Shown: one piece after another, positions 665 to 40,064 of the stretch
Position numbering within the stretch: position 1 is the stretch's first letter
Layout of the letters: every line of letters starts with the position of its first letter
Sequence record: NC_073082
Length of the DNA: 44,715 bases
Direction: 5' to 3' (one strand)
Source of the DNA: Shigella phage vB_SboD_StarDew
Notes under the pieces: generated by a model
What the model saw: the letters and a program-made list of their open reading frames with translations, nothing else
Databases searched by the model: none
What the model was told of the DNA's origin: nothing
Made by a program: the position numbers and the translations under genes

Positions 665-2049
665 TGCGTAACTATGCTGCAGAACACCGCGCACTGGAAC
701 GCGCGATCGCGAAGCGCAACCGACCACCGCGCCCGACACGCGTTGCGCAGGCGGTGCGGCTTTACCAGCCTGATTGCCTACCGCACCAGGTCGAACTACT
801 GCGGGACACGAAGACTAAAATCCTCGGCCTGTGTTCCGGCTTCGGCGGCGGCAAGTCATGGGTCGCAGCACGTAAGGTAATCCAGCTTTTAACCCTGAAC
901 CCGGGTCATGATGGCATCGTTACCGAACCGACTATTCCACTCCTGGTTAAAATCATGTATCCGGAATTGGAAAAGGCTTTCGACGAGGCTGGCTTCCGGT
1001 GGAAGTTCAACAAGCAGGACAAGATCTATAGCGTTCTGGTGAAAGGCAAATGGACCCGCGTGATCTGTGAATCAATGGAGAACTATACCCGCCTGATCGG
1101 GGTCAACGCCGCGTGGATTGTTGCCGACGAGTTCGACACCACGAAACAAGACGTCGCGCTGGCTGCATATCACAAATTGCTAGGTCGTCTGCGTGCGGGC
1201 TTCGTCCGCCAGTTCGTCATCGTATCCACGCCTGAAGGCTACCGGGCGATGTATCAAATTTTCGAGGTGGAGAAGGATAGCCAAAAGCGCCTGATCCGGG
1301 CGAAGACCACCGACAACCACCATTTACCGGCAGACTTTATCGACACGCTGCGCAGTCAGTACCCGGCGAACCTTATTGACGCGTACCTGAACGGCCTGTT
1401 TGTTAACCTTACGTCGGGCGCGGTGTACAAGATGTTTAATCGCGAGGAGAACGCCAGCACCGAAGAAGTACAACCGGAAGACACGCTGATTATCGGCATG
1501 GACTTTAACGTCACGAAAATGGCGGCGGTCGTGTATGTAAGACGGCAGCGTACCACCGAGAACAAGGAGTTCCGCGACGAGATTCACGCCGTGGATGAAT
1601 TCGTGGACCTGTTTGATACCCCGGCTATGATTGAAGCGATCGAGGAGCGCTACCCCGATCATTGCGCTGCCGGTCGTGTTGTCGTGTACCCGGATAGCAG
1701 CGGCAAATCCCGCAAAACGGTTAACGCTTCGTCGTCCGATATCGCGCAACTGGAAGATGCGGGCTTCGAGGTGGAATACGACAGCGTTAACCCGCCTGTG
1801 AAAGACCGATTGATCGCGATGAATACGATGATGTGCAACTCGAAGGGCGTGCGCCAGTATTTTGTCAACCTGGATAAATGCCCTACACTAGCGAAATGTC
1901 TGGAACAGCAGGTTTACGACCTGAAGAAAGGCGAGCCGGATAAAACCGCCGGTGTGGACCACATGAACGATGCCGCGGGTTATCCAATTGCGCACCTGTT
2001 CCCTGTGATTCGTCCAATCGCCGTTGTTCCTACCGTAGATTTCTACTAA
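664..2049 (+). CDS. terL: terminase large subunit (ATPase + nuclease)
   Basis: Walker A-like GFGGGKS and Walker B-like WIVADEFD in N-terminal half; 461 aa; followed by portal gene. Confidence 0.85.
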   Translation: MRNYAAEHRALERAIAKRNRPPRPTRVAQAVRLYQPDCLPHQVELLRDTKTKILGLCSGFGGGKSWVAARKVIQLLTLNPGHDGIVTEPTIPLLVKIMYPELEKAFDEAGFRWKFNKQDKIYSVLVKGKWTRVICESMENYTRLIGVNAAWIVADEFDTTKQDVALAAYHKLLGRLRAGFVRQFVIVSTPEGYRAMYQIFEVEKDSQKRLIRAKTTDNHHLPADFIDTLRSQYPANLIDAYLNGLFVNLTSGAVYKMFNREENASTEEVQPEDTLIIGMDFNVTKMAAVVYVRRQRTTENKEFRDEIHAVDEFVDLFDTPAMIEAIEERYPDHCAAGRVVVYPDSSGKSRKTVNASSSDIAQLEDAGFEVEYDSVNPPVKDRLIAMNTMMCNSKGVRQYFVNLDKCPTLAKCLEQQVYDLKKGEPDKTAGVDHMNDAAGYPIAHLFPVIRPIAVVPTVDFY

Positions 2050-2060
2050 GGAAACCGACC

Positions 2061-3581
2061 ATGACCGTTAACGTTGACAACCAGCACCCGCTCTATGCGC
2101 GCATCGCGCCAGAGTGGAAAATGATCCGTGACTGCGTAGCAGGTGAGCGCGCCGTGAAGGCGTGCGGCCCCTTGTACCTGCCGCACCCCGCAAGCGGCGA
2201 CACCACCGACCCGAAATCACGGGCACGCTATAAGGCATATAAGCAACGTGCTGTCTTCCTGAACGCCACCGCCCGCACACTGAATGCGCTGTTAGGTGTC
2301 GCCTTCGCCAAACCGGTGAGTATGGACCTTTCCGGGGCAATGGCTGACCTGATTGATGACGTTGACGGCAGCGGTATGCCGCTGGCGCAACTCCTGCGCG
2401 GTGCTATGTCTGAAGTTCTGCAATCAGGTCGTGCCGGGTTTATGGTCGACTACGACCGCCAGGCGCATTTTGACGAACTGGGTAACGTAGTACCGCAGAC
2501 AGCCGCTGAAATGGCAGCACACCGCCCGCTTATCCGCCTGTATACGGCTGAACAGATCATTAACTGGCGGCAGACCCACGGGGTCGACACGCTAATCGTG
2601 CTGAAGGAAACGGACGAAATCAGCACCGAAGACCCGGACGACTTCGCAAACCACGAAGTAACGATCTGGACCGAGCTTCGCATGATTGCAGGTAAGGCCC
2701 ACGCCCGCCGCTGGTTTTACAACGCTGACACGTCCGAGGTGCAGATGGACTTGCCGCGAGGCTTCACCCGCACCGACCTTGTACCATTGGTGGATGCCTC
2801 CGGTAATGCGCTTACTCAACTGCCATTTTGCTGGTGTGGCGCGGTGGACAACAACGCGACACCGGACGCCGCACCGCTGGCGGATATTGCGTCCATCAAC
2901 ATTAAGCACTACAACGCCGAAGCGGACGTCGCCGAGATCGCGCACATCGTGGGCCAACCTACACTCATTGCGACTGGTCTGACCCAATCATGGGCGGACA
3001 AGAACCTGAAAGGAGGCATCGCGCTCGGGGCAACTAAGGGCGTTATCCTGGGCCAGAACATGGACGCTAAACTTCTTCAGGCGGAGGAGCGCAACCTGTC
3101 TGTTGCACTGTGTGAGCGCCGCGAATTGCAAATGGCTAAACTGGGCGCGGCCCTGGTCGAGAAGGGGACCGCACCTAAGACGGCAACCGAGGCGGCCTAT
3201 GATGCACAGACTGATAACAGTATCCTGTCACTGATTGCCGGTAACGTCGAGAAGGCTTTCAACCGTGCGCTGCAAATCGTCAAGCTGTTCACGGGCGACA
3301 CCGCAGATCAACGCGTAACGCTGAATAAGTTCTACACCGAAATCACGGTTGACGCACAGCTTATGACCGCGATGATGGCAGGTGTGCAGACCGGTACTGT
3401 CCGACTGGCTGACTTTATCAAGTGGATGATGGCCCAGGGCGTTATTGATGACTCGCAAACCGTCGAGCAGGTGGAAGACGAACTGCGAAATCAGAATCCA
3501 TTGCCTCAAATGTCCCCGGATGCGGTAGAATCGACCGAAGAAGCCCCGGACGAGGTAGCGGACAATGGCGAAGACAATTAA
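2061..3581 (+). CDS. portal protein
   Basis: 506 aa ORF directly after terL with AAGGAAA RBS; acidic C-terminus; canonical gene order. Confidence 0.75.
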   Translation: MTVNVDNQHPLYARIAPEWKMIRDCVAGERAVKACGPLYLPHPASGDTTDPKSRARYKAYKQRAVFLNATARTLNALLGVAFAKPVSMDLSGAMADLIDDVDGSGMPLAQLLRGAMSEVLQSGRAGFMVDYDRQAHFDELGNVVPQTAAEMAAHRPLIRLYTAEQIINWRQTHGVDTLIVLKETDEISTEDPDDFANHEVTIWTELRMIAGKAHARRWFYNADTSEVQMDLPRGFTRTDLVPLVDASGNALTQLPFCWCGAVDNNATPDAAPLADIASINIKHYNAEADVAEIAHIVGQPTLIATGLTQSWADKNLKGGIALGATKGVILGQNMDAKLLQAEERNLSVALCERRELQMAKLGAALVEKGTAPKTATEAAYDAQTDNSILSLIAGNVEKAFNRALQIVKLFTGDTADQRVTLNKFYTEITVDAQLMTAMMAGVQTGTVRLADFIKWMMAQGVIDDSQTVEQVEDELRNQNPLPQMSPDAVESTEEAPDEVADNGEDN

Positions 3582-4668
3582 TCAATATATGGCGGATCGA
3601 ATGATTCGCCGTCACATCTTCACCCAGCGCCTGAGTAATGACCAGGCGCGGAGGGTGTTGGCTATGTGGGAGAAGTTCCGGCCCACGTTACTGGGTAAGC
3701 TGACCGAGTTGCTTGATGGTAAAAAGTCCATGAGCAACAAGGCGCTTACCACCCTGTTAACGCAACTCGACAAGACCGTCAAAACGGAACTGCGCACCGA
3801 GTTTAAGGTGCTGGCTGAAAGCCTTCAGGAGTTCGCCGACACCGAGGCCGATTATCTCGCCGACACATTAACGGCAGCGATCCAGCCGGTGGTCGCCGTA
3901 CCGGCGGTCGAGGTGGTTGGCGTAGTGACCGGCGCGCAGATCGCAGCAACGGCAATGAAAAACCCGTTCCAGGGCAATACCATGATGCAATGGCCCGACT
4001 CACTTTCTGAGTGGGCCAGGACGCAGATCGGTAATCAGGTGCGGGCGGGATTCATCCAGGGCAAGCCAACGATGGAAATTATCGCGGACGTGAGGCGCGC
4101 GCTAGGCGGTCGTAGTGCGCAAGCCATCTCAAGCGTTGTTAAGTCCGCAGTCAACCACTATGCGGCGACCGCCCGCGAACTAATGGTAAAAGCAAATGAC
4201 GATATTCTCGAAGGTCGCCAATGGTTATCTACATTGGACACGCATACTTCTCCCATGTGCCAGCTACGCGATCGCCTGTTTTATCCGGTTGATGTTACTC
4301 CCGATACGAAAGGGAAGCGAGGCGGAAAAGTGGTGGCGGGATCACAATATGGCGCTGGTCCGGGCAAGCTACATTATTGCTGCCGCTCGACGGAGACGTG
4401 GAAAGTCAAAGGTATGGAAGATTGGCCCAGTGGTAAGCGTCCGGCACTGAAGGCCGACGCAGGCAGATTGCTGAGTGAGCAGGTCGACGCGCAGACGGAT
4501 TTCTTCTCATGGGTGCAGCGCCAGCCGCGCCATATCCTGGAGGAATTATATGGAGTGCAACGCGCCGACCAGATTATGCGCGGCGTGAAAGTGCCGAAGA
4601 TGTTCACCGATTCCGGCGAACTAATGACTATCGAGCAGCTTAAAAACCGGGGGTTATGGCGTGATTAA
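3565..4668 (+). CDS. head morphogenesis / minor head protein (Mu F / SPP1 gp7-like position)
   Basis: 367 aa ORF overlapping portal stop; gene order terL-portal-minor head protein; call is positional. Confidence 0.55.
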   Translation: MAKTINQYMADRMIRRHIFTQRLSNDQARRVLAMWEKFRPTLLGKLTELLDGKKSMSNKALTTLLTQLDKTVKTELRTEFKVLAESLQEFADTEADYLADTLTAAIQPVVAVPAVEVVGVVTGAQIAATAMKNPFQGNTMMQWPDSLSEWARTQIGNQVRAGFIQGKPTMEIIADVRRALGGRSAQAISSVVKSAVNHYAATARELMVKANDDILEGRQWLSTLDTHTSPMCQLRDRLFYPVDVTPDTKGKRGGKVVAGSQYGAGPGKLHYCCRSTETWKVKGMEDWPSGKRPALKADAGRLLSEQVDAQTDFFSWVQRQPRHILEELYGVQRADQIMRGVKVPKMFTDSGELMTIEQLKNRGLWRD

Positions 4669-4990
4669 ATATGCAGCTATTGGACTGGTTATCGGTCTGG
4701 CGGTAGGATTCTGGCTAGGTGACTCCTATCGTGCTGGCGTAGTGGCGGAGGCGGCGCAAGAAGCGCAAGCCCAAGCCCAACGGCAGCAAACTAAAGTTGT
4801 CGAGCGCTCCGTGCAGGCCGAACAAGCCCGCGACGTAGAATACCGGACTATCACGAAAGAGGTTGTTAAATATGTTACGCGCCCTAACCGCCCTGATTGT
4901 AGTTTTGATGCTGAGCGCGTGCGGATCAAGCAACGCGCCGTTGATGCCGCTAACGGAGTCGGCACTGCGACCGCCGTGCAAGTTCGATAG
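4661..4990 (+). CDS. i-spanin (Rz-like): N-terminal TM helix plus Ala/Gln-rich coiled region; GTG start
   Basis: N-terminus MIKYAAIGLVIGLAVGFWLG is a single TM segment, followed by AEAAQEAQAQAQRQQ; overlapped in another frame by a lipoprotein ORF. Confidence 0.5.
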   Translation: MIKYAAIGLVIGLAVGFWLGDSYRAGVVAEAAQEAQAQAQRQQTKVVERSVQAEQARDVEYRTITKEVVKYVTRPNRPDCSFDAERVRIKQRAVDAANGVGTATAVQVR

Positions 4991-5102
4991 CCCGTCCGCA
5001 GACCCCGACGAGGATTTGATGATTGACGTGAAAAATATGGAATGCGGGGCGAAGCTAAGGGCGCAGGTGCTGGAGTTGCAGCAAATAATTAAGGGGCCGT
5101 AA
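4863..5102 (+). CDS. o-spanin (Rz1-like outer-membrane lipoprotein), overlapping the i-spanin gene in a different frame
   Basis: Signal peptide with lipobox (VLMLSAC), Pro-rich mature part with Cys residues; classic overlapped Rz/Rz1 architecture. Confidence 0.55.
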   Translation: MLNMLRALTALIVVLMLSACGSSNAPLMPLTESALRPPCKFDSPSADPDEDLMIDVKNMECGAKLRAQVLELQQIIKGP

Positions 5103-5115
5103 TGGCCCCCTTTTC
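5092..5115. terminator. bidirectional rho-independent terminator (GGGGCC-gtaat-GGCCCC + TTTT) between convergent genes
   Basis: Perfect 6-bp GC stem read directly; T-run follows on plus strand; located between o-spanin stop and stop of the minus-strand gene. Confidence 0.6.
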
Positions 5116-5116
5116 G

Positions 5117-5881
5117 TTAGCGCGGAATACCGCAAATCTCGTTGAGAGTTTTCACATCCAGCGCCACCGCCGTGGATTTTGGCTTGTCCGGGTAAGGGAT
5201 GAATTGCTCAACTTCAGGCCATGCCTTAATCAGCTTCTTGTCAGTATTGTGCAGGTCCAGCACACCGGTAACGGTCAACTTGAACGCGTCATACTTAGCC
5301 CGCAATTCGCGGCGGGCCTTATCGTTACGGTCCAGGCGCTTGCAGAAATCGTGGTCCGCAGGGTAGTCTATGCGACCGCGTGGCTTATAGATCGGCAGCG
5401 ATTTTCCGTCCTCGTCCACTTCACACACCGAAGCCAGCATAACTTCCTCGAACCCCGGTACGATATCGCCGAGATCGGGAGATAGCTTATTCATGTATTT
5501 ATATTCCCAGTATCCTCGATGTACTCGGTATTGGTATCCGTCGCCGCTCAATGACAAGGTGCGAACGTTTCCGCCTGCGTTTATTTCGAAAGTGGCGTCG
5601 TAAACGCTGCCGATACCTTTTGGGCGGTCGGTGTTATAACTATACGTCGCCTTGTTGGTGTATACACAGACGCCGTACATCTGCGACGGGTCATCGCCGA
5701 TTGCTTCAATGCGCTCGAGTAGCTTGGCGAACGTGCGAATGCCTTCCGGCATACAGTCCAGCGTAATGGCATAAGCCAGGTCGCGCGAGTCCATCATGAT
5801 TTGTTTGGCTTCTGTCGCGATTTCGTGGTCGCGCAGGATGTTAGCCAGGATCTGATTTTTAATGTCTTTAGTAAGTCTCAT
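5117..5881 (-). CDS. hypothetical protein (254 aa), reverse-strand accessory gene (moron) inside head module
   Basis: Long ORF with GAGGA RBS 8 nt upstream of ATG at 5881; own promoter at 5911-5940; ORF track 5117..5926 trimmed to first ATG with RBS. No family recognised. Confidence 0.6.
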   Translation of the reverse strand: MRLTKDIKNQILANILRDHEIATEAKQIMMDSRDLAYAITLDCMPEGIRTFAKLLERIEAIGDDPSQMYGVCVYTNKATYSYNTDRPKGIGSVYDATFEINAGGNVRTLSLSGDGYQYRVHRGYWEYKYMNKLSPDLGDIVPGFEEVMLASVCEVDEDGKSLPIYKPRGRIDYPADHDFCKRLDRNDKARRELRAKYDAFKLTVTGVLDLHNTDKKLIKAWPEVEQFIPYPDKPKSTAVALDVKTLNEICGIPR

Positions 5882-5910
5882 TTTTGTGTCCTCGTTGTTG
5901 GTGTGCAACC

Positions 5911-5940
5911 AATATAATGCAACCAATACTCGGATTGCAA
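5911..5940 (-). promoter_or_regulatory. candidate promoter (minus strand): -35 TTGCAA, 18-bp spacer containing ATTGGTTGCA, -10 TATATT
   Basis: Read on reverse complement; same architecture recurs at 27247-27275 and 40008-40036. Confidence 0.45.
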
Positions 5941-6029
5941 GCGAATTTTGCGATTATTTTTATCGCTGATAATATTAAGGCGTGAAGTCAAGCGGGTGGC
6001 CCGCTTTGCCACAATCCCAGGGGGATAGC

Positions 6030-6731
6030 ATGAAACTTACTAAAGCAGAATATGACGCGTTGCCGGAAGGTATGAAGGCGCTTTTTGTTGCCGATGGTGA
6101 CGGGTATAAAGCAACGTTCATGACCGCCGAAGAAGTACAGGCGGAGATCAAGGGTCTGAAAGACAACAACGCGAAGCTGGTTAGCGAGAAGAAAGCAGAA
6201 GCCGAACGCCGCGCCGAAGCCGAGCGCCTTGCGAAAGAGAAAGAGGAAGCCGCCGCGCGCAAAAATGGCGACCTCGAAGCGATCGACAAGTCCTGGAAAG
6301 ATAAGTTTGCGAAACACGAAGCAGACACATCGGGAAAAATAGAAGCCTACCGCAAGCAGATCCACGACCTAACCATCGGCAGCGCTGCCAAAGATTTGGC
6401 CTCGAAGCTGTTCGGTAAGAATGCGGGCATCATGCAACGCCACGTTATGGACCGCCTGACGCTGGAAGACGGCGAAGACGGCAGCTTGAAGGTGCGTGTC
6501 TTGCAGGATGGCAAACCGTCCGCGCTGACTATGGAAGAGCTTGAAAAAGAGTTCCGTAATAACGCCGATTTTGCATCCGTCCTGGCGGGCACGCCAGCCG
6601 GTGGTGCGCCGAGCAAACCGACGCAGGTCGTCGAAGATGTGAAGTCTAAAATCACTATGGGCCACAGCTTTGGCATCACCGACCTGACGAAACAGGCGGG
6701 TGAAATCATCGCTAAAATGGGCGACGAGTAA
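6030..6731 (+). CDS. head scaffolding protein
   Basis: Lys/Glu/Ala-rich, coiled-coil-like sequence (KKAEAERRAEAERLAKEKEEAAARK); immediately upstream of the major capsid gene; GGGGGA RBS before ATG at 6030. Confidence 0.65.
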   Translation: MKLTKAEYDALPEGMKALFVADGDGYKATFMTAEEVQAEIKGLKDNNAKLVSEKKAEAERRAEAERLAKEKEEAAARKNGDLEAIDKSWKDKFAKHEADTSGKIEAYRKQIHDLTIGSAAKDLASKLFGKNAGIMQRHVMDRLTLEDGEDGSLKVRVLQDGKPSALTMEELEKEFRNNADFASVLAGTPAGGAPSKPTQVVEDVKSKITMGHSFGITDLTKQAGEIIAKMGDE

Positions 6732-6828: not shown

Positions 6829-7929
6829 ATGTCTTTAACAGTGTTCCAGCGTAAACTCGTCACCGCGGTTACGCAAATGATTCCCGATAACCTGAACGTG
6901 TTCAACGCCGCCGCTAACGGCGCTGTTGTTCTCGGTACGGGTGAAGTGCTGAAGGACGTTGTAGAAAAAATGTCCGTAGGCTTGATCGCCAACCTCGTTA
7001 CCGACCGTAACGCCTATGCCCCTGTCGGTACTCCGGCGACCGCAAAAGTGCTGGCGCGTATGCTGACCAACTCCGTAAACCTGTCCGCGAAAGTGGGTCC
7101 GGTAGCAATCACTAAGGCTATGATGGCTAAAATCGAAACCAACGTTAACAGCGTTGCGGCTGAGATTGCGGCACAGGCTACTCAAGCGATTATGCTGCAT
7201 TACCTGAAGGCTGGCATCGGCGCAAGTAAAGCGGCGATCGAGAGCAACGCAGCGGCAAAATACACCCAACCGGCGCGCGTTGACGGCGTTGGCGGTCGTA
7301 CCTTCCCGACCCTGGCAGACTTCCCGCTGGCGGCTTCTAAGTTCGGCGATCAGGCGTCTTTGATTAAGTCCTGGTTTATGGACGGCGTTACTTGGGCAAA
7401 CTTCATTGCGTACCAGGCACTCCCTTCCGCTGAACAGGTATTCGCAATTGGCGATCTCCAGGTAATGGGCGATGGCCTGGGCCGTCGCTTCATTATCTCC
7501 GATGCCGCTGCAGATGCTATGGGCCCGGGTAACATGCTGGGTCTGGTCCCTGGCGCGGTTGCAGTTACCACCAACGGTCTTGATATGCTGGCGCAGGAGA
7601 AAGGCGGTAACGAGAACATCGAACGTTGGTGGCAGGGCGAGTTCGACTTCAACGTGGCGGTTAAAGGCTACCGTCTGAAGGCGTCCGCACGTACTCCGGT
7701 CGAAGGTGTTCGCTCGTTCAAACTGTCCGACATCACCACTTCCGCTAACTGGGAACTGGATCAGGGCCAGGTAGACAACGCACCGGCAACCGTTCAGGAT
7801 GTTGGCGCTGTTGGTGACGGCGATACTAAAGGCCGTCGTAAGACCCAGGCCGCACAGGAAGTGCCTACCCGTCACATCAAGGAAACGGCAGGCGTACTGG
7901 TTACGCTTACCCCGACCAAAGCGTCCTGA
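6829..7929 (+). CDS. major capsid protein
   Basis: 366 aa ORF after scaffold, strong terminator downstream, canonical position; AAGGA RBS. Confidence 0.75.
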   Translation: MSLTVFQRKLVTAVTQMIPDNLNVFNAAANGAVVLGTGEVLKDVVEKMSVGLIANLVTDRNAYAPVGTPATAKVLARMLTNSVNLSAKVGPVAITKAMMAKIETNVNSVAAEIAAQATQAIMLHYLKAGIGASKAAIESNAAAKYTQPARVDGVGGRTFPTLADFPLAASKFGDQASLIKSWFMDGVTWANFIAYQALPSAEQVFAIGDLQVMGDGLGRRFIISDAAADAMGPGNMLGLVPGAVAVTTNGLDMLAQEKGGNENIERWWQGEFDFNVAVKGYRLKASARTPVEGVRSFKLSDITTSANWELDQGQVDNAPATVQDVGAVGDGDTKGRRKTQAAQEVPTRHIKETAGVLVTLTPTKAS

Positions 7930-7946
7930 TCTACGCACATCCCAAA

Positions 7947-25291: not shown

Positions 25292-25353
25292 TATGTTTTC
25301 CTTTTTAGTGGGGGCGGTATTGCCCCCGACGTGATTAAGATACTGCAACCAAC

Positions 25354-25824
25354 CTATTGGTTGCAAGTGAATTTTGCAACGTTTATCGCATAAATTTTCG
25401 GGACCAGATCGCCGCACGCCCGACGAATTGCCGCGATGTTCTTCGGACAGTCTTCAATGATGACCAGTTCCGACACGTCCGCGTAGCAGACCATTTTGAA
25501 CACGGCGCACGCCTTAAACTCTGGCGGCGGGGTGTCGTCCAGCATGTGGCGCATAAACAACCGGCCTACCGGGAATACCTCCAATTGCTCGGCGGTGGTG
25601 TCCCAACATTCACGCTGCCGGTTGGTCAGATACGCGATCTCGAAGCCTTGCTCTTTGTACATGGTCAGCAGCGGCAGCATATCCATGTTCAGATCTTCGC
25701 GTACGTGCGCTCTGTGCCACTTCGCCCAAAAGGTGGATTTAGTTTTTATGCCAGGCACCAGGTCGGCACGCGCATCGCTTGAACCGTTAATAACGCCATC
25801 CAGATCGCAAATCAGTAATTTCAT
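25354..25824 (-). CDS. HAD-superfamily phosphatase-like protein (possible nucleotidase / polynucleotide 3-prime phosphatase)
   Basis: N-terminal HAD motif I (LLICDLDGVI); GAGGAG RBS. Confidence 0.55.
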   Translation of the reverse strand: MKLLICDLDGVINGSSDARADLVPGIKTKSTFWAKWHRAHVREDLNMDMLPLLTMYKEQGFEIAYLTNRQRECWDTTAEQLEVFPVGRLFMRHMLDDTPPPEFKACAVFKMVCYADVSELVIIEDCPKNIAAIRRACGDLVPKIYAINVAKFTCNQ

Positions 25825-26054: not shown

Positions 26055-26511
26055 TCTCGCTCATTATTTCAATTTGTGCGCTGCCGATGGGTGGCGCTTC
26101 GTCAAATATTATTAATTGCTGGCACTTGTTATTGCTCGGACCGACTTCGCCGGTGACGGCGTGAATGAATCTAATCCGCCAGTCCAGAAGAATTATCATA
26201 TTGGCGGTCCTCCGGGCCAGCTTCGCCCACTTCGTCGACGTGTCCTGATTCAGTAGCATGACGGTCCGACGTCCATGCGCTGCGCACTCGACCCACGGCA
26301 GCGGATCGGAATACGGCGGATTGCACCACTTCCACCCTTTCAACTCCGACCAGTCCGCATCGAGCGCGCTGTGCTCTGCCGTGAAGTAACGCGGCAGCAG
26401 GTGGTTGGCGTCGCTCGCCGCCATATCGTAACGGAATCGGTACTTCCGGCGCAGTGGTTTAAATAAAGCTGGCGGTGTGCGCCAGCTATCTTTTTGCTCA
26501 TTCTCCGTCAT
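26026..26511 (-). CDS. dam: DNA N6-adenine (or N4-cytosine) methyltransferase, phage Dam-like
   Basis: Motifs WRTPPALF and WKWCNPPYSDPLPW (amino-MTase catalytic NPPY); about 160 aa as in phage orphan Dam enzymes. Confidence 0.7.
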   Translation of the reverse strand: MTENEQKDSWRTPPALFKPLRRKYRFRYDMAASDANHLLPRYFTAEHSALDADWSELKGWKWCNPPYSDPLPWVECAAHGRRTVMLLNQDTSTKWAKLARRTANMIILLDWRIRFIHAVTGEVGPSNNKCQQLIIFDEAPPIGSAQIEIMSESELHEYLSR

Positions 26512-26956
26512 AGTCTGGATCTATCGCATACAGGGCGGTTTTCTTGCTGCTAGACAGCACACGTTGGACTCGGGATATCTCCGCCCTACTGAGCGGTCTG
26601 CTATCGGAATAGTAGCTGCCGTTTGCACGCCACGCTATACGCACCAGTCCTTCCCGCGGGATCGAAGACTGGCGGCCTTTGGGGCGCACGTACTCCTCCG
26701 CGCGTTTACAATGTTCACGCAACGCATCCGCCGTGACGCGGTTTAGCGCAACGCTGGTTGTGTATCCGGTGCGCTGCATAATCCCCATCAGTTCGAAAAG
26801 CAGTTCAAAGCGCTCCTCTAACTCCATGCGACGCTTTTCTTCCGTTTCATAGCTTGACAGGTAGGTATCCGCCAGCGCGTTGACGCGTTCGGCATGTTCG
26901 CGGGCTTCGAGGCATTGCGCGGCCCAGTAATCTTTCTCTTCTTGTAAAATTTTCAT
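26498..26956 (-). CDS. hypothetical protein (152 aa)
   Basis: ORF with GGAG RBS; stop abuts stop of upstream gene. Confidence 0.45.
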   Translation of the reverse strand: MKILQEEKDYWAAQCLEAREHAERVNALADTYLSSYETEEKRRMELEERFELLFELMGIMQRTGYTTSVALNRVTADALREHCKRAEEYVRPKGRQSSIPREGLVRIAWRANGSYYSDSRPLSRAEISRVQRVLSSSKKTALYAIDPDYDGE

Positions 26957-27246: not shown

Positions 27247-27275
27247 AATATAATGCAACCAATACGGTTATGCAA
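27247..27275 (-). promoter_or_regulatory. candidate promoter (minus strand): -35 TTGCAT, 17-bp spacer containing ATTGGTTGCA, -10 TATATT
   Basis: Read on reverse complement; 19-mer AATATAATGCAACCAATAC identical to 5911-5929. Confidence 0.45.
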
Positions 27276-27280
27276 CCAAT

Positions 27281-33865: not shown

Positions 33866-34108
33866 TCAAGCATTTTCATCAAAAAGATTTCGGGTCACGT
33901 AATTGGTTGCGTTCTCGATCCAGCTTAACGGCGGGCGGTCGATGTTCTTTTCCACCCAATCGACGGCAACTTCGCTATAGCCGTCATCCAGCCAGCGGGT
34001 CGGATGGCGAATCATCCACGCCACCATTAACACGCCTTGCACGCAATGCAGGATAAATCCCAGCGCGCCGAGCAAAAACATCAATAAGATTGCGAATACT
34101 TTATTCAT
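33866..34108 (-). CDS. small membrane protein (80 aa)
   Basis: Two hydrophobic segments (VFAILLMFLLGALGFILHCVQGVLMVAWMI); GAGGA RBS. Confidence 0.45.
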   Translation of the reverse strand: MNKVFAILLMFLLGALGFILHCVQGVLMVAWMIRHPTRWLDDGYSEVAVDWVEKNIDRPPLSWIENATNYVTRNLFDENA

Positions 34109-35531
34109 TGCTTAAGTCCTCGTCAGTAGCTTCTGACCACGCAGGGCGCGGGTCGTCGATTGGCGCTAATACCGGTTTGGCGGGTGCGCGCGTGATTTTA
34201 GCACACAGCTTCGCCCACACTTTCGGTTTTTCGTCCTTCAATACCTTCTCGGCATCCGTAGGGCTGAGCAATGTTTCTTTGTACATCACATCGCGCTTGA
34301 TCCGGGCCTTCGTGAAGATTTCAATCACTTCGCTCTCGTCCGCCCACTTGCGGATTCCTTCCTTACCGGCAACCATCTTTAAGCCCAGCGATTCGCCATC
34401 ACCCGCCATTACCGCTTTGAATACCGCGGACTCGATAGCTTTGATGTGCTGTCGCATTGCGTCCAGGCCTTCATACGCCTTGCGCAGTTCCGCAGCGCTC
34501 ATAGCACCGGGGGCCGCTTCTTTCTTACCACGCTTCGCACGTCGGGCCGCCTTCCGGGCTTCGCGGGCCATATTGCCGTCATGGTTGGCGCATTCTTCCT
34601 CTGTCGCAATACTCACGTCGTCGCCCAGGTCTTCGTCGGTTGCCGTTGGGGGTGTCATCGTGTCGATTGCGGCCTTAGCGCGGGCACTACACTGATCCGC
34701 AAATCGGCACCACTGGCACGCATCAACGCTGGGACGGAAGTCGGCACGGGTAAGTCCCTTCTTGCCTCGGGAATACGCCTCCAGTGCGGCAATCGCGCGC
34801 TTGGATGCAAACTTCGCGAATATCTCCAGCGCTTCTACCGAAATATCCCACTCCGACGCCCCGCCGCAATACGGCTGGAAGATAACCAGGCGAACGGTCG
34901 TAATGTCGTACATAGTTTGCAGCTTGCGCAGCAGTCCGAGCGCGTACAACATAAGCTGTTTGTTCTCTTTCGCCTCGACCTTATGCCGCCCGGTCTTCAG
35001 GTCGCCAACAATCAGCATGTACGTCCCATCGGTCTTTTTCATGACCATGACCATATCGGCAGTACCGAACGTTTTAATCCTGTTGCCGTCGATCTCGTAG
35101 CCTGAGTGAAGGACGCGGGTCAGATCGGCGCGCATCTCAAGCTGGACAAACTCCGCCACTTCGAGGAGCGGTCGCCAGTGGTCGATGTACGCGTCGCACT
35201 GTTTCACCATGTCGTCGTTGACCAGTACGCCGCCTTTCGGTGCTTTCGGGTGTGCCTTTACCGGCCCCTTGCCTTCGTTCTCGACGTAGCACCCTTTATA
35301 CGTCTTTGCGGTTATCAGCTTTTCGCCGGCGATAATGCGGTTTAGCACCACTTCAGATACGGTGTGCATACTCGTACCGTTAATCGCGGCTTGCCCGGAT
35401 TCGTTCGGGATATCTTTTTCCACCACCAGGGCAGCAGGGCAACCCATCCACTTTTTAGCACCGGATGGCCCAAGTAATGAGTGTTCTGTATTGCTACCGG
35501 ATTGCGTTTTACGTTTTGGTTTAATCGCCAT
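34101..35531 (-). CDS. PD-(D/E)xK / Cas4-like nuclease (DUF2800-like) of replication-recombination module
   Basis: N-terminal LLGPSGAKKWMGCPA, core GDLKTGRHKVEAKENKQLMLYAL, C-terminal Cys cluster CQWCRFADQC; usual neighbour of gp2.5-like SSB and PolA. Confidence 0.55.
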   Translation of the reverse strand: MAIKPKRKTQSGSNTEHSLLGPSGAKKWMGCPAALVVEKDIPNESGQAAINGTSMHTVSEVVLNRIIAGEKLITAKTYKGCYVENEGKGPVKAHPKAPKGGVLVNDDMVKQCDAYIDHWRPLLEVAEFVQLEMRADLTRVLHSGYEIDGNRIKTFGTADMVMVMKKTDGTYMLIVGDLKTGRHKVEAKENKQLMLYALGLLRKLQTMYDITTVRLVIFQPYCGGASEWDISVEALEIFAKFASKRAIAALEAYSRGKKGLTRADFRPSVDACQWCRFADQCSARAKAAIDTMTPPTATDEDLGDDVSIATEEECANHDGNMAREARKAARRAKRGKKEAAPGAMSAAELRKAYEGLDAMRQHIKAIESAVFKAVMAGDGESLGLKMVAGKEGIRKWADESEVIEIFTKARIKRDVMYKETLLSPTDAEKVLKDEKPKVWAKLCAKITRAPAKPVLAPIDDPRPAWSEATDEDLSNE

Positions 35532-36009: not shown

Positions 36010-36525
36010 TTAATCTTCCAGTTCGAAATAAGTTTCGACGATTTCTTTAAGATCTTTGTGGAAGTCTTCGACGTCTTCATCTTCCAGCTTGGCGATTGAT
36101 TTGATCTCGAACGATTCCAGCAGGTCGTCAAATTCGTCGTTCGCGTCGTCGTCGTCACCACCGGCAATAATAGCGGCATATTGTTTGATTTCGTCGCGCA
36201 TCTCCGCCAGCGGATCGGCATCTTTCTTGCCTTTGACTTTCGCCGGGGCTTTTTTAGATTTAGCCGGTTTTTCGTCTTCGGCATCATCGTCGTCATCTTC
36301 TACGACTTCTTTTTTGGCCTTACCTTTCGCCGGGGCTTTTTTAGATTTAGCCGGTTTTTCGTCTTCGGCGTCATCGTCGTCATCTTCGACAACTTCTTTT
36401 TTCACCTTAGACGGCTTCTTGTCTTCCTGCTTACCAACGGCAGCGCCAACGGTTTCATAATGCTTAGCGATGGTTTCCAGTGCTACTACGCCGCGAGTAA
36501 TCAGGTTTACGATTTGTTCAAACAT
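36010..36525 (-). CDS. first gene of leftward early operon: protein with tandem Lys/Asp/Glu-rich repeats and acidic C-terminus
   Basis: GGAGA RBS before ATG at 36525; 26-aa unit KKEVVEDDDDDAEDEKPAKSKKAPAK repeated twice; track ORF 36010..36753 trimmed. Confidence 0.55.
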   Translation of the reverse strand: MFEQIVNLITRGVVALETIAKHYETVGAAVGKQEDKKPSKVKKEVVEDDDDDAEDEKPAKSKKAPAKGKAKKEVVEDDDDDAEDEKPAKSKKAPAKVKGKKDADPLAEMRDEIKQYAAIIAGGDDDDANDEFDDLLESFEIKSIAKLEDEDVEDFHKDLKEIVETYFELED

Positions 36526-39848: not shown

Positions 39849-40007
39849 CATAAAATCCAGGATTGCATAACGCACGGCAACATGATGCAAATTGCGGTCG
39901 TCGATGATCTAGGCAACCAATGCGAGTTGCAGAATGGTGGGTGAGAAATGCAGTTTGCAGTCACAGCAGATAGCGATCAACTTTTTCATACGCGTGATTA
40001 ATATTGG

Positions 40008-40036
40008 TTGCACCCACCCTGGCACCCTGCTATATT
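40008..40036 (+). promoter_or_regulatory. candidate promoter: -35 TTGCAC within ATTGGTTGCA, 17-bp spacer, -10 TATATT, conserved leader
   Basis: Leader TATATTGGTTGCACACCAACA...GAGGAC nearly identical to the reverse complement of 5890-5916. Confidence 0.45.
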
Positions 40037-40064
40037 GGTTGCACACCAACATGAGGACTGAACA

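Follow-up and report, generated by a model that had tools for sequence, protein, structure and literature searches.

Nmad5 and its published orthologues

The Nmad domains were reportedly defined by Iyer et al. in 2013, and the name of the Nmad5 family reflects an association with modification genes. The closest described members are the nmad5 genes of the Dhillonviruses SM_A8 and SM_S22, which were studied by Yamashita et al. (2025, Commun Biol 8:290; PMC11846954). In that work, the substitution K216E alone was sufficient for escape from the Tmn defence system, an abortive-infection NTPase, and its reversion restored sensitivity. Deletion of nmad5 gave a viable phage that formed plaques and was still sensitive to Tmn; hence, Nmad5 is not the only trigger of Tmn. 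Attempts to clone the gene in E. coli were unsuccessful, apparently due to its toxicity, and the co-expression test failed for this reason. Wild-type nmad5 gave no rescue from Tmn, whereas the K216E allele did. Sensitivity despite a wild-type nmad5 was observed both in SM_S22 deleted for its anti-Tmn gene and in SM_A8, in which the anti-Tmn gene is reduced to a remnant. The authors followed the family name in terming nmad5 a “DNA modification enzyme” (PMC11846954).

A further point of comparison is Tmn-25, which, according to a 2026 preprint, is triggered directly by RIIB of T2/T4, a membrane-anchoring component of the replisome, and from which RIIB nonsense mutants escape (PMC13001434). The resemblance to nmad5 is one of functional analogy only: mutations in either phage protein allow Tmn escape, but the loss of RIIB leads to escape whereas the deletion of nmad5 does not. 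Homology between Nmad5 and RIIB was tried and rejected (hhalign probability 0.3%).

The window analysed here, i.e., the whole stretch of 44.7 kb, is a complete genome (annotation transferred from phage Zumzum). A first-pass annotation, made from the letters alone, had called its reverse-strand gene at 5117-5881 unrecognised and had proposed a sensitive profile search. When this search was run, the encoded protein matched Pfam PF18757 (Nmad5, “Nucleotide modification associated domain 5”) with E=6.8e-59 and 199.8 bits, against a cut-off of 27, the match spanning residues 1-253 and model positions 1-206 of 206. It also matched PHROG 1965 (E=1.6e-62), while the PADLOC and NCBIfam scans of the protein gave no match. 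The gene is therefore not an unrecognised one but a full-length member of a catalogued family, with orthologues that had already been named nmad5. The protein was 91% and 93% identical to Nmad5 of SM_A8 and SM_S22, respectively, with the same locus and an invariant K216, and the window gene is almost certainly the Dhillonvirus nmad5. As a finding, the gene itself adds little: it is already known, Pfam has listed its family for years, and the literature already contains deletions, mutants and a discussion of near-identical orthologues (PMC11846954).

The nmad5 genes of SM_A8 (PP920553, CDS7) and SM_S22 (PP627283, CDS6) come from the same genus as that of the window and have the same position, orientation and length of 254 aa, and their loci carry promoter and terminator elements as in the window. 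A difference was found directly upstream of the gene, where a slot is empty in the window and in SM_S22 but occupied by a 104-aa cargo ORF in SM_A8. The phenotypes described above were measured in these orthologues, that is, in phages different from that of the window. The GenBank CDS of the SM_S22 gene (PP627283 CDS0006, positions 2006-3010 of locus L003) overshoots the gene by 80 aa at its N-terminal end, taking in the promoter and reaching into the scaffold gene; hence, residue K296 of the published work on SM_S22 corresponds to K216 of SM_A8. Compared with a typical PF18757 member (about 205 aa), the Dhillonvirus protein is about 50 aa longer, the extra residues lying in a variable beta-sheet insert, and the N-terminal MRLT and C-terminal WPE and LN..GLP motifs of the family are all present in the window protein. 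Unlike what the PF18757 name would suggest, no modification genes adjoin the Dhillonvirus gene.

The nmad5 transcription unit in the head module

In the window, the genes come in the order terS, terL, portal, Mu-F-like, spanins, nmad5, scaffold, capsid and tail, after which there is a DNA-metabolism block on the reverse strand. By megablast, both the region and the capsid gene had ~95% nucleotide identity to phages phiEco273 and SECphi4 of the genus Dhillonvirus (HK578-like E. coli siphoviruses). Within the head module, nmad5 is flanked by the o-spanin gene (end at 5102) and the scaffold gene (ATG at 6030), and the following features were assigned to the locus.

5091-5111, both strands: GC-rich 8-bp hairpin, predicted to be terminator-like on both strands, where the o-spanin and nmad5 transcripts would converge
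5117-5881, minus strand: nmad5 coding sequence (Nmad5 family, PF18757), with K216 inside T213-x-x-K-L-x-x-x-W221-P-E223
5882-5903, minus strand: short 5' leader, the position of a hypervariable cargo slot that is empty in the window
5889-5893, minus strand: ribosome-binding site GAGGA, read from the sequence, 7 nt upstream of the nmad5 ATG
5904-5926, minus strand: direct repeat of the 9-mer TTGGTTGCA (5926-5918 and 5912-5904) that flanks the -10 element
5911-5940, minus strand: sigma-70-like promoter, with -35 TTGCAA (5940-5935), an 18-nt spacer and -10 TATATT (5916-5911)

The reverse-strand ORF runs intact from the ATG at 5881 to the TAA at 5119-5117 (254 aa). Its length was not taken as proof of coding, because a 367-aa ORF at 6835-7938 (minus strand) lies antisense to the major capsid gene, which makes ORF length a poor coding criterion in a genome of 55% GC; this 367-aa ORF is almost certainly a non-coding shadow ORF. 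The coding status of nmad5 is shown instead by the Pfam match (E=6.8e-59), by a median pairwise dN/dS of 0.115 among the orthologues (mean dS about 0.49) and by a length of 254 aa unchanged in 14/14 orthologues, and its reading as a spurious antisense ORF was rejected. The ATG at 5881 is the true start, since few parts of the family proteins are as conserved as the N-terminal M-R-L-T. An alternative TTG start at 5926 was discarded, as it lies upstream of the predicted -10 element. The product is a soluble, near-neutral protein of 29 kDa.

The promoter and the hairpin proposed by the first-pass annotation held up on closer analysis. The recurrent TTGCA/TATATT family that it had noted is genuine, because three matches to TTGCA-N16-19-TATAWT were counted in the window, with 0.14 expected, and none of the shuffles reached three. 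The element ahead of nmad5 was retained in 13/14 orthologous loci, always in front of the first gene of the reverse unit. Sister promoters of the same architecture were found at 27.2 kb (27247-27275, minus strand) and at 40.0 kb, and the stretch from the -10 element to the ribosome-binding site, TATATTGGTTGCACACCAACA..GAGGAC, is common to the nmad5 promoter and to 40031-40058 (plus strand). On these sequence grounds, nmad5 is predicted to be transcribed from a host-type promoter of its own, belonging to a kind that is otherwise seen in the DNA-metabolism and early regions.

The 9-mer TTGGTTGCA was present in 12 exact copies in the window, with about 0.3 expected for a random 9-mer. Its sites (5904-5926, 22014, 25344-25365, 27254-27279, 33832, 36730, 40004-40043 and 40567) are mostly intergenic in the DNA-metabolism/early block, and the copies are often paired or arranged as an inverted repeat, as at 25344-25365. 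The 9-mer probably serves as a promoter element or as the binding site of a regulator. The -35 hexamer of the nmad5 promoter, TTGCAA, is its own reverse complement. A weak, sub-threshold promoter-like element seen by eye, TTGCGA-16-TAATAT at 5948-5975 on the plus strand, adjoins the nmad5 promoter upstream of the scaffold gene, and positions 5935-5975 may be a compact divergent control region.

At the other end of the unit, the hairpin at 5091-5111 begins 5 nt past the nmad5 stop codon and contains the stop codon of the o-spanin gene in its loop. For the minus strand, a folding energy of -16.8 kcal/mol was calculated (z=-2.1). The hairpin was conserved in 14/14 loci, and the T-runs behind it are no more than moderate on either strand. 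The claim of a bidirectional terminator at the 3' end agrees with these calls on both strands. Likewise borne out was the description of a gene lying on the opposite strand between the spanin pair and the scaffold gene; with the predicted promoter and the shared hairpin terminator as its limits, this gene would be transcribed from the reverse strand as a unit of its own within the head module.

The further claim that this unit is a horizontally acquired moron did not stand for nmad5 itself. A promoter and a terminator of its own, which are expected of a moron, were found as consensus matches conserved across the orthologous loci. Atypical base composition was not found for nmad5: its GC content was 52.0% (gene mean 55.0 +/- 2.1) and its GC3 63.1% (62.7 +/- 5.7), the latter typical of the genome, and neither value hints at a recent acquisition. 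The presence/absence check across relatives was run on 157 Dhillonvirus records found by a capsid-gene search, and patchy presence was not observed among them: tblastn detected nmad5 at >=60% identity in 148 of the about 157 records, and at full length in 144. Almost every member of the genus carries the gene, which evolves under purifying selection. No second copy of Nmad5 was found within the window, where hyp49 was checked and was not one.

What varied among the relatives was the slot between the reverse promoter and nmad5, with five states in 14 Dhillonviruses. The slot was empty in the window, in SM_S22 and in three IMG/VR genomes, the start codons of nmad5 and the scaffold gene being 148-149 nt apart. 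It was occupied by a 104-aa ORF (phrog_24635) in five genomes, by a 53-aa ORF in one, by a 135-aa ORF in two and by a 170-aa beta-clamp-like ORF (phrog_3007) in EP23; examples of occupied slots upstream of nmad5 are those of loci L001 (2823-3191, minus strand), L007, L008 (2050-2457) and L012 (1853-2419). The reverse unit is thus composed of promoter, variable cargo, nmad5 and hairpin, with nmad5 as the constant anchor and the slot as the true moron-like site.

Protein features and genomic context of the family

A profile search against 1.84 billion representative proteins yielded 831 Nmad5 matches at E<=1e-3, with a median length of 205 aa. An AlphaFold2 model of the window protein built on an alignment of 141 sequences reached a pLDDT of 90.9 and a pTM of 0.84, and replaced a first run on an 8-sequence alignment (pLDDT 64). 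The predicted fold has a helix at its N-terminus and a long helical hairpin with antiparallel arms (residues 20-42 and 178-209), together with a beta-sheet insert (about 75-175) and three short helices at the C-terminus. No relative of this model was found in the PDB, and phmmer and profile searches of the PDB sequences returned nothing meaningful.

Conservation was measured on 137 diverse homologues and was concentrated at both termini (R2-L3-T4, T213, L217, W221-P222-E223, P229, L246-N247 and G251-x-P253), the middle of the alignment being poorly aligned, with occupancy down to 5-20%. All the family motifs (M-R-L-T, G104, G113, T213..L217...W221-P-E223, P229, L246-N247 and G251-[LI]-P253) are present in the window protein. 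G, P, L and W make up most of the conserved positions, with R2, T213, E223 and N247 in addition, and no conserved His/Cys/Asp catalytic set was found among the 137 homologues. The residue changed in the Tmn escape mutants, K216, is flanked by the near-invariant T213, L217 and W221-P222; at this position K is the majority residue (77 of 137), followed by Q (24) and R (19), which together account for 120/137. Neither a hydrophobic or transmembrane segment in the window protein (maximum KD19 1.09) nor a consistently basic region across the family was found, and a membrane or DNA-binding signature was thus not supported.

The genomic context was surveyed in loci from IMG/VR and assemblies, collected in part with three sub-alignments as queries and clustered at 70% identity into 33 Nmad5 groups. 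The genes repeatedly found next to Nmad5, as read from crude metagenomic gene calls, were an SF2 helicase (6 loci), DNA polymerase A (6) and a DUF2800/PD-(D/E)XK exonuclease (5), followed by a primase-helicase, an Enc34-type SSB and a ParB-like protein (3 each), the last being assigned from motif reading, without a Pfam match. When the 149 neighbour ORFs were compared with Pfam, the top families included CI-like repressors, exonucleases, helicases, AAA_24, polymerase, primase and SSB. Methyltransferase, glycosyltransferase, TET/JBP, DpdA and thymidylate-synthase-like families were all absent from the top 25 families listed for these ORFs, so that each of them has at most two members among the 149, and no hydroxymethylase family was listed either. 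Some homologues adjoin NADAR, Lambda_Kil and other small early genes.

In Klebsiella phage VLCpiS11a, a member of the Guernseyvirinae (locus L004, 4462-7480), Nmad5 stands in the order acidic protein, Nmad5, two small ORFs, exonuclease, SSB and PolA, and the replication module of the window is syntenic with that of this phage. The window encodes a homologue of the acidic protein at 36010-36525 (minus strand; a C-terminal 36-aa match, E=1e-9) and an exonuclease at 34101-35531 (minus strand) with 54% identity to the DUF2800 exonuclease of VLCpiS11a. Both genes keep the VLCpiS11a order, without Nmad5 between them. From this comparison, nmad5 appears to have been relocated from the replication module into the head module of Dhillonvirus, the direction being taken from the majority context. 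Nmad5 normally belongs to the replication/recombination module, and the accessory-gene hot spot in Dhillonvirus is the slot directly upstream of it.

An association with base-modification genes was found only in the YuA-like Pseudomonas phages, the neighbours at the window locus being spanin and scaffold genes. In YuA, gp15 lies between aGPT-Pplase/kinase/radical-SAM/PLP genes and a dUMP hydroxymethylase gene, and the Nmad5 proteins of M6 and SN1 are placed by annotation within a thymidine-hypermodification cassette (PMC9476957). YuA gp15 and the M6 and SN1 proteins are of the same family as the window protein, with ~40% identity over the C-terminal 80 residues. The YuA-type protein is of 186 aa and sits in a hypermodification cassette, whereas Dhillonvirus has none of those genes.

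Two further loci deserve mention. In an unrelated metagenomic phage (locus L022, 4815-7654), a 204-aa Nmad5 heads an opposite-strand block of small genes, the last of which encodes a dGTP_diPhyd_N protein; this block is inserted between the portal and Mu-F genes, which parallels the placement in Dhillonvirus. In the Stx2a-converting phage Stx2_06E050 (locus L006, 3528-5315), Nmad5 is cut to a 152-aa C-terminal ORF, and the sequence suggests that it was truncated by an IS3-family element (two transposase-like ORFs, 3528-4741). The remnant lies upstream of an ORF for a putative P-loop ATPase, Sak4/AAA_24-like by motif.

Candidate roles of Nmad5

The explanation that we favour, though by a modest degree, is that Dhillonvirus nmad5 encodes an early, non-catalytic binding or adaptor protein of the replication module that was relocated to the head module; the non-catalytic adaptor mechanism, taken by itself, is proposed more tentatively, with a chance a little below even. 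Nmad5 would bind or bridge other molecules rather than act as an enzyme, and the absence of a His/Cys/Asp set from the conserved residues argues against an enzymatic role. Its conserved head (N-terminal MRLT together with C-terminal T..KL...WPE and LN..GLP) would contact a conserved phage replication/recombination partner, and the lineage-specific beta-sheet insert (about 70-170), at the far end of the helical hairpin, would give specificity. The gene would have moved out of a replication module like those in which its homologues lie by exonuclease, SSB and DNA polymerase A genes, and the relocated copy would be a stand-alone unit of the head module that kept early-type regulation, as suggested by a promoter family common to the DNA-metabolism and early regions.

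As for the escape mutants, K216E, a charge reversal in the most conserved motif of the family, would have gained or changed binding specificity so that it masks or sequesters the real Tmn trigger. It is best read as changed binding, and not as the loss of a sensed protein; deletion of nmad5 gives no Tmn escape. A replisome-linked explanation is also attractive because RIIB, a replisome component, triggers another Tmn. Several observations weigh against the adaptor reading: the neighbourhood is only correlative and relies on crude gene calls in the metagenomic loci, the position of YuA, M6 and SN1 Nmad5 inside a thymidine-hypermodification cassette is consistent with a base-modification role, and the lack of a known fold is still compatible with a new catalytic fold.

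A more far-reaching proposal is that Nmad5 is a fold-novel, non-catalytic organiser of the replisome or of recombination in many proteobacterial siphophages, whose head would bind the component sensed by Tmn; K216E would then convert a routine accessory protein of replication into an anti-Tmn factor that masks the trigger. This would be a long shot, with a lower chance than either of the two alternatives discussed next; if true, it would link the RIIB-type logic of Tmn triggering to a second, unrelated family of phage proteins.

Unlike the adaptor reading, the published label would cast Nmad5 as a factor that truly modifies nucleotides or DNA, be it a new-fold enzyme or an obligatory subunit or specificity factor of such an enzyme; it would mark Dhillonvirus DNA, with Tmn or another defence sensing the mark. 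This is unlikely in our judgement. It accords with the family name, with the cassettes of YuA gp15 and SN1, with the description given in PMC11846954, and with the presence in the window of two DNA methyltransferases and a polynucleotide kinase, one of the sister promoters heading the operon that contains MTase2. However, Nmad5 has neither a known catalytic fold nor conserved catalytic residues, none of the modification families named above figured among the top 25 neighbour families (149 ORFs, 33 loci), Dhillonvirus lacks a hypermodification cassette, and deletion of the orthologue left a viable phage that kept its Tmn sensitivity (PMC11846954). The label “DNA modification enzyme” is unsupported by the fold, the conserved residues and the typical neighbourhood of Nmad5. 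The relocation and the upstream slot favour the search for protein partners of the N/C-terminal head over a search for modified bases.

Judged improbable to a similar extent was a role in host takeover or anti-defence, in which Nmad5 would inhibit a nuclease, a repair protein or an immunity protein of the host, its resistance to cloning would reflect this activity and the K216E change would redirect it to Tmn. The gene is non-essential, resisted cloning with apparent toxicity and gave rise to a gain-of-function point mutant; it forms a stand-alone unit with a predicted host-type promoter and adjoins a hypervariable cargo slot, as is typical of accessory and anti-defence loci, and some homologues lie by NADAR, Lambda_Kil and small early genes. 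Counter-defence genes are, however, usually patchy and fast-evolving, whereas purifying selection acts on nmad5 and nearly the whole genus carries it. Furthermore, the conserved part of the protein is common to phages of Escherichia, Pseudomonas, Bordetella, Vibrio and alphaproteobacteria, and such different hosts point to a phage-side or universal partner. Neither PADLOC nor any other search gave a defence-related match, and the wild-type gene did not protect from Tmn (PMC11846954). The suggestion of an anti-defence or exclusion factor in the first-pass annotation was therefore upheld in part: the gene is accessory and deletable and its K216E form escapes Tmn, but carriers of the wild-type gene stay Tmn-sensitive. 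The inhibitor reading is compatible with the adaptor explanation and the two are not mutually exclusive.

A head-assembly or structural role, suggested by a location with the Mu-F-like/spanin genes on one side and the scaffold gene on the other and by one unrelated phage with Nmad5 between its portal and Mu-F genes, is highly improbable for a gene on the opposite strand with its own predicted promoter, with most homologues in replication or early regions, with no similarity to any structural protein in the searches and with a viable deletion (PMC11846954). The view of nmad5 as an accessory rather than a structural gene agrees with this, as the homology to a conserved structural protein that would have spoken against it was not found. 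The interest that remains lies in the biochemistry of Nmad5 and in the gain-of-function escape from Tmn through K216E.

Additionally, a 152-aa ORF at 26498-26956 (minus strand) of the window was 77% identical to SM_S22 CDS0035, which is annotated as “DNA ligase” and is very probably the published anti-Tmn protein (ORF35). It was full length in 151 Dhillonvirus records and reduced to a remnant in SM_A8, in agreement with PMC11846954. In the window, this ORF belongs to the operon behind the sister promoter at 27247-27275 (minus strand), of the same family as the nmad5 promoter.
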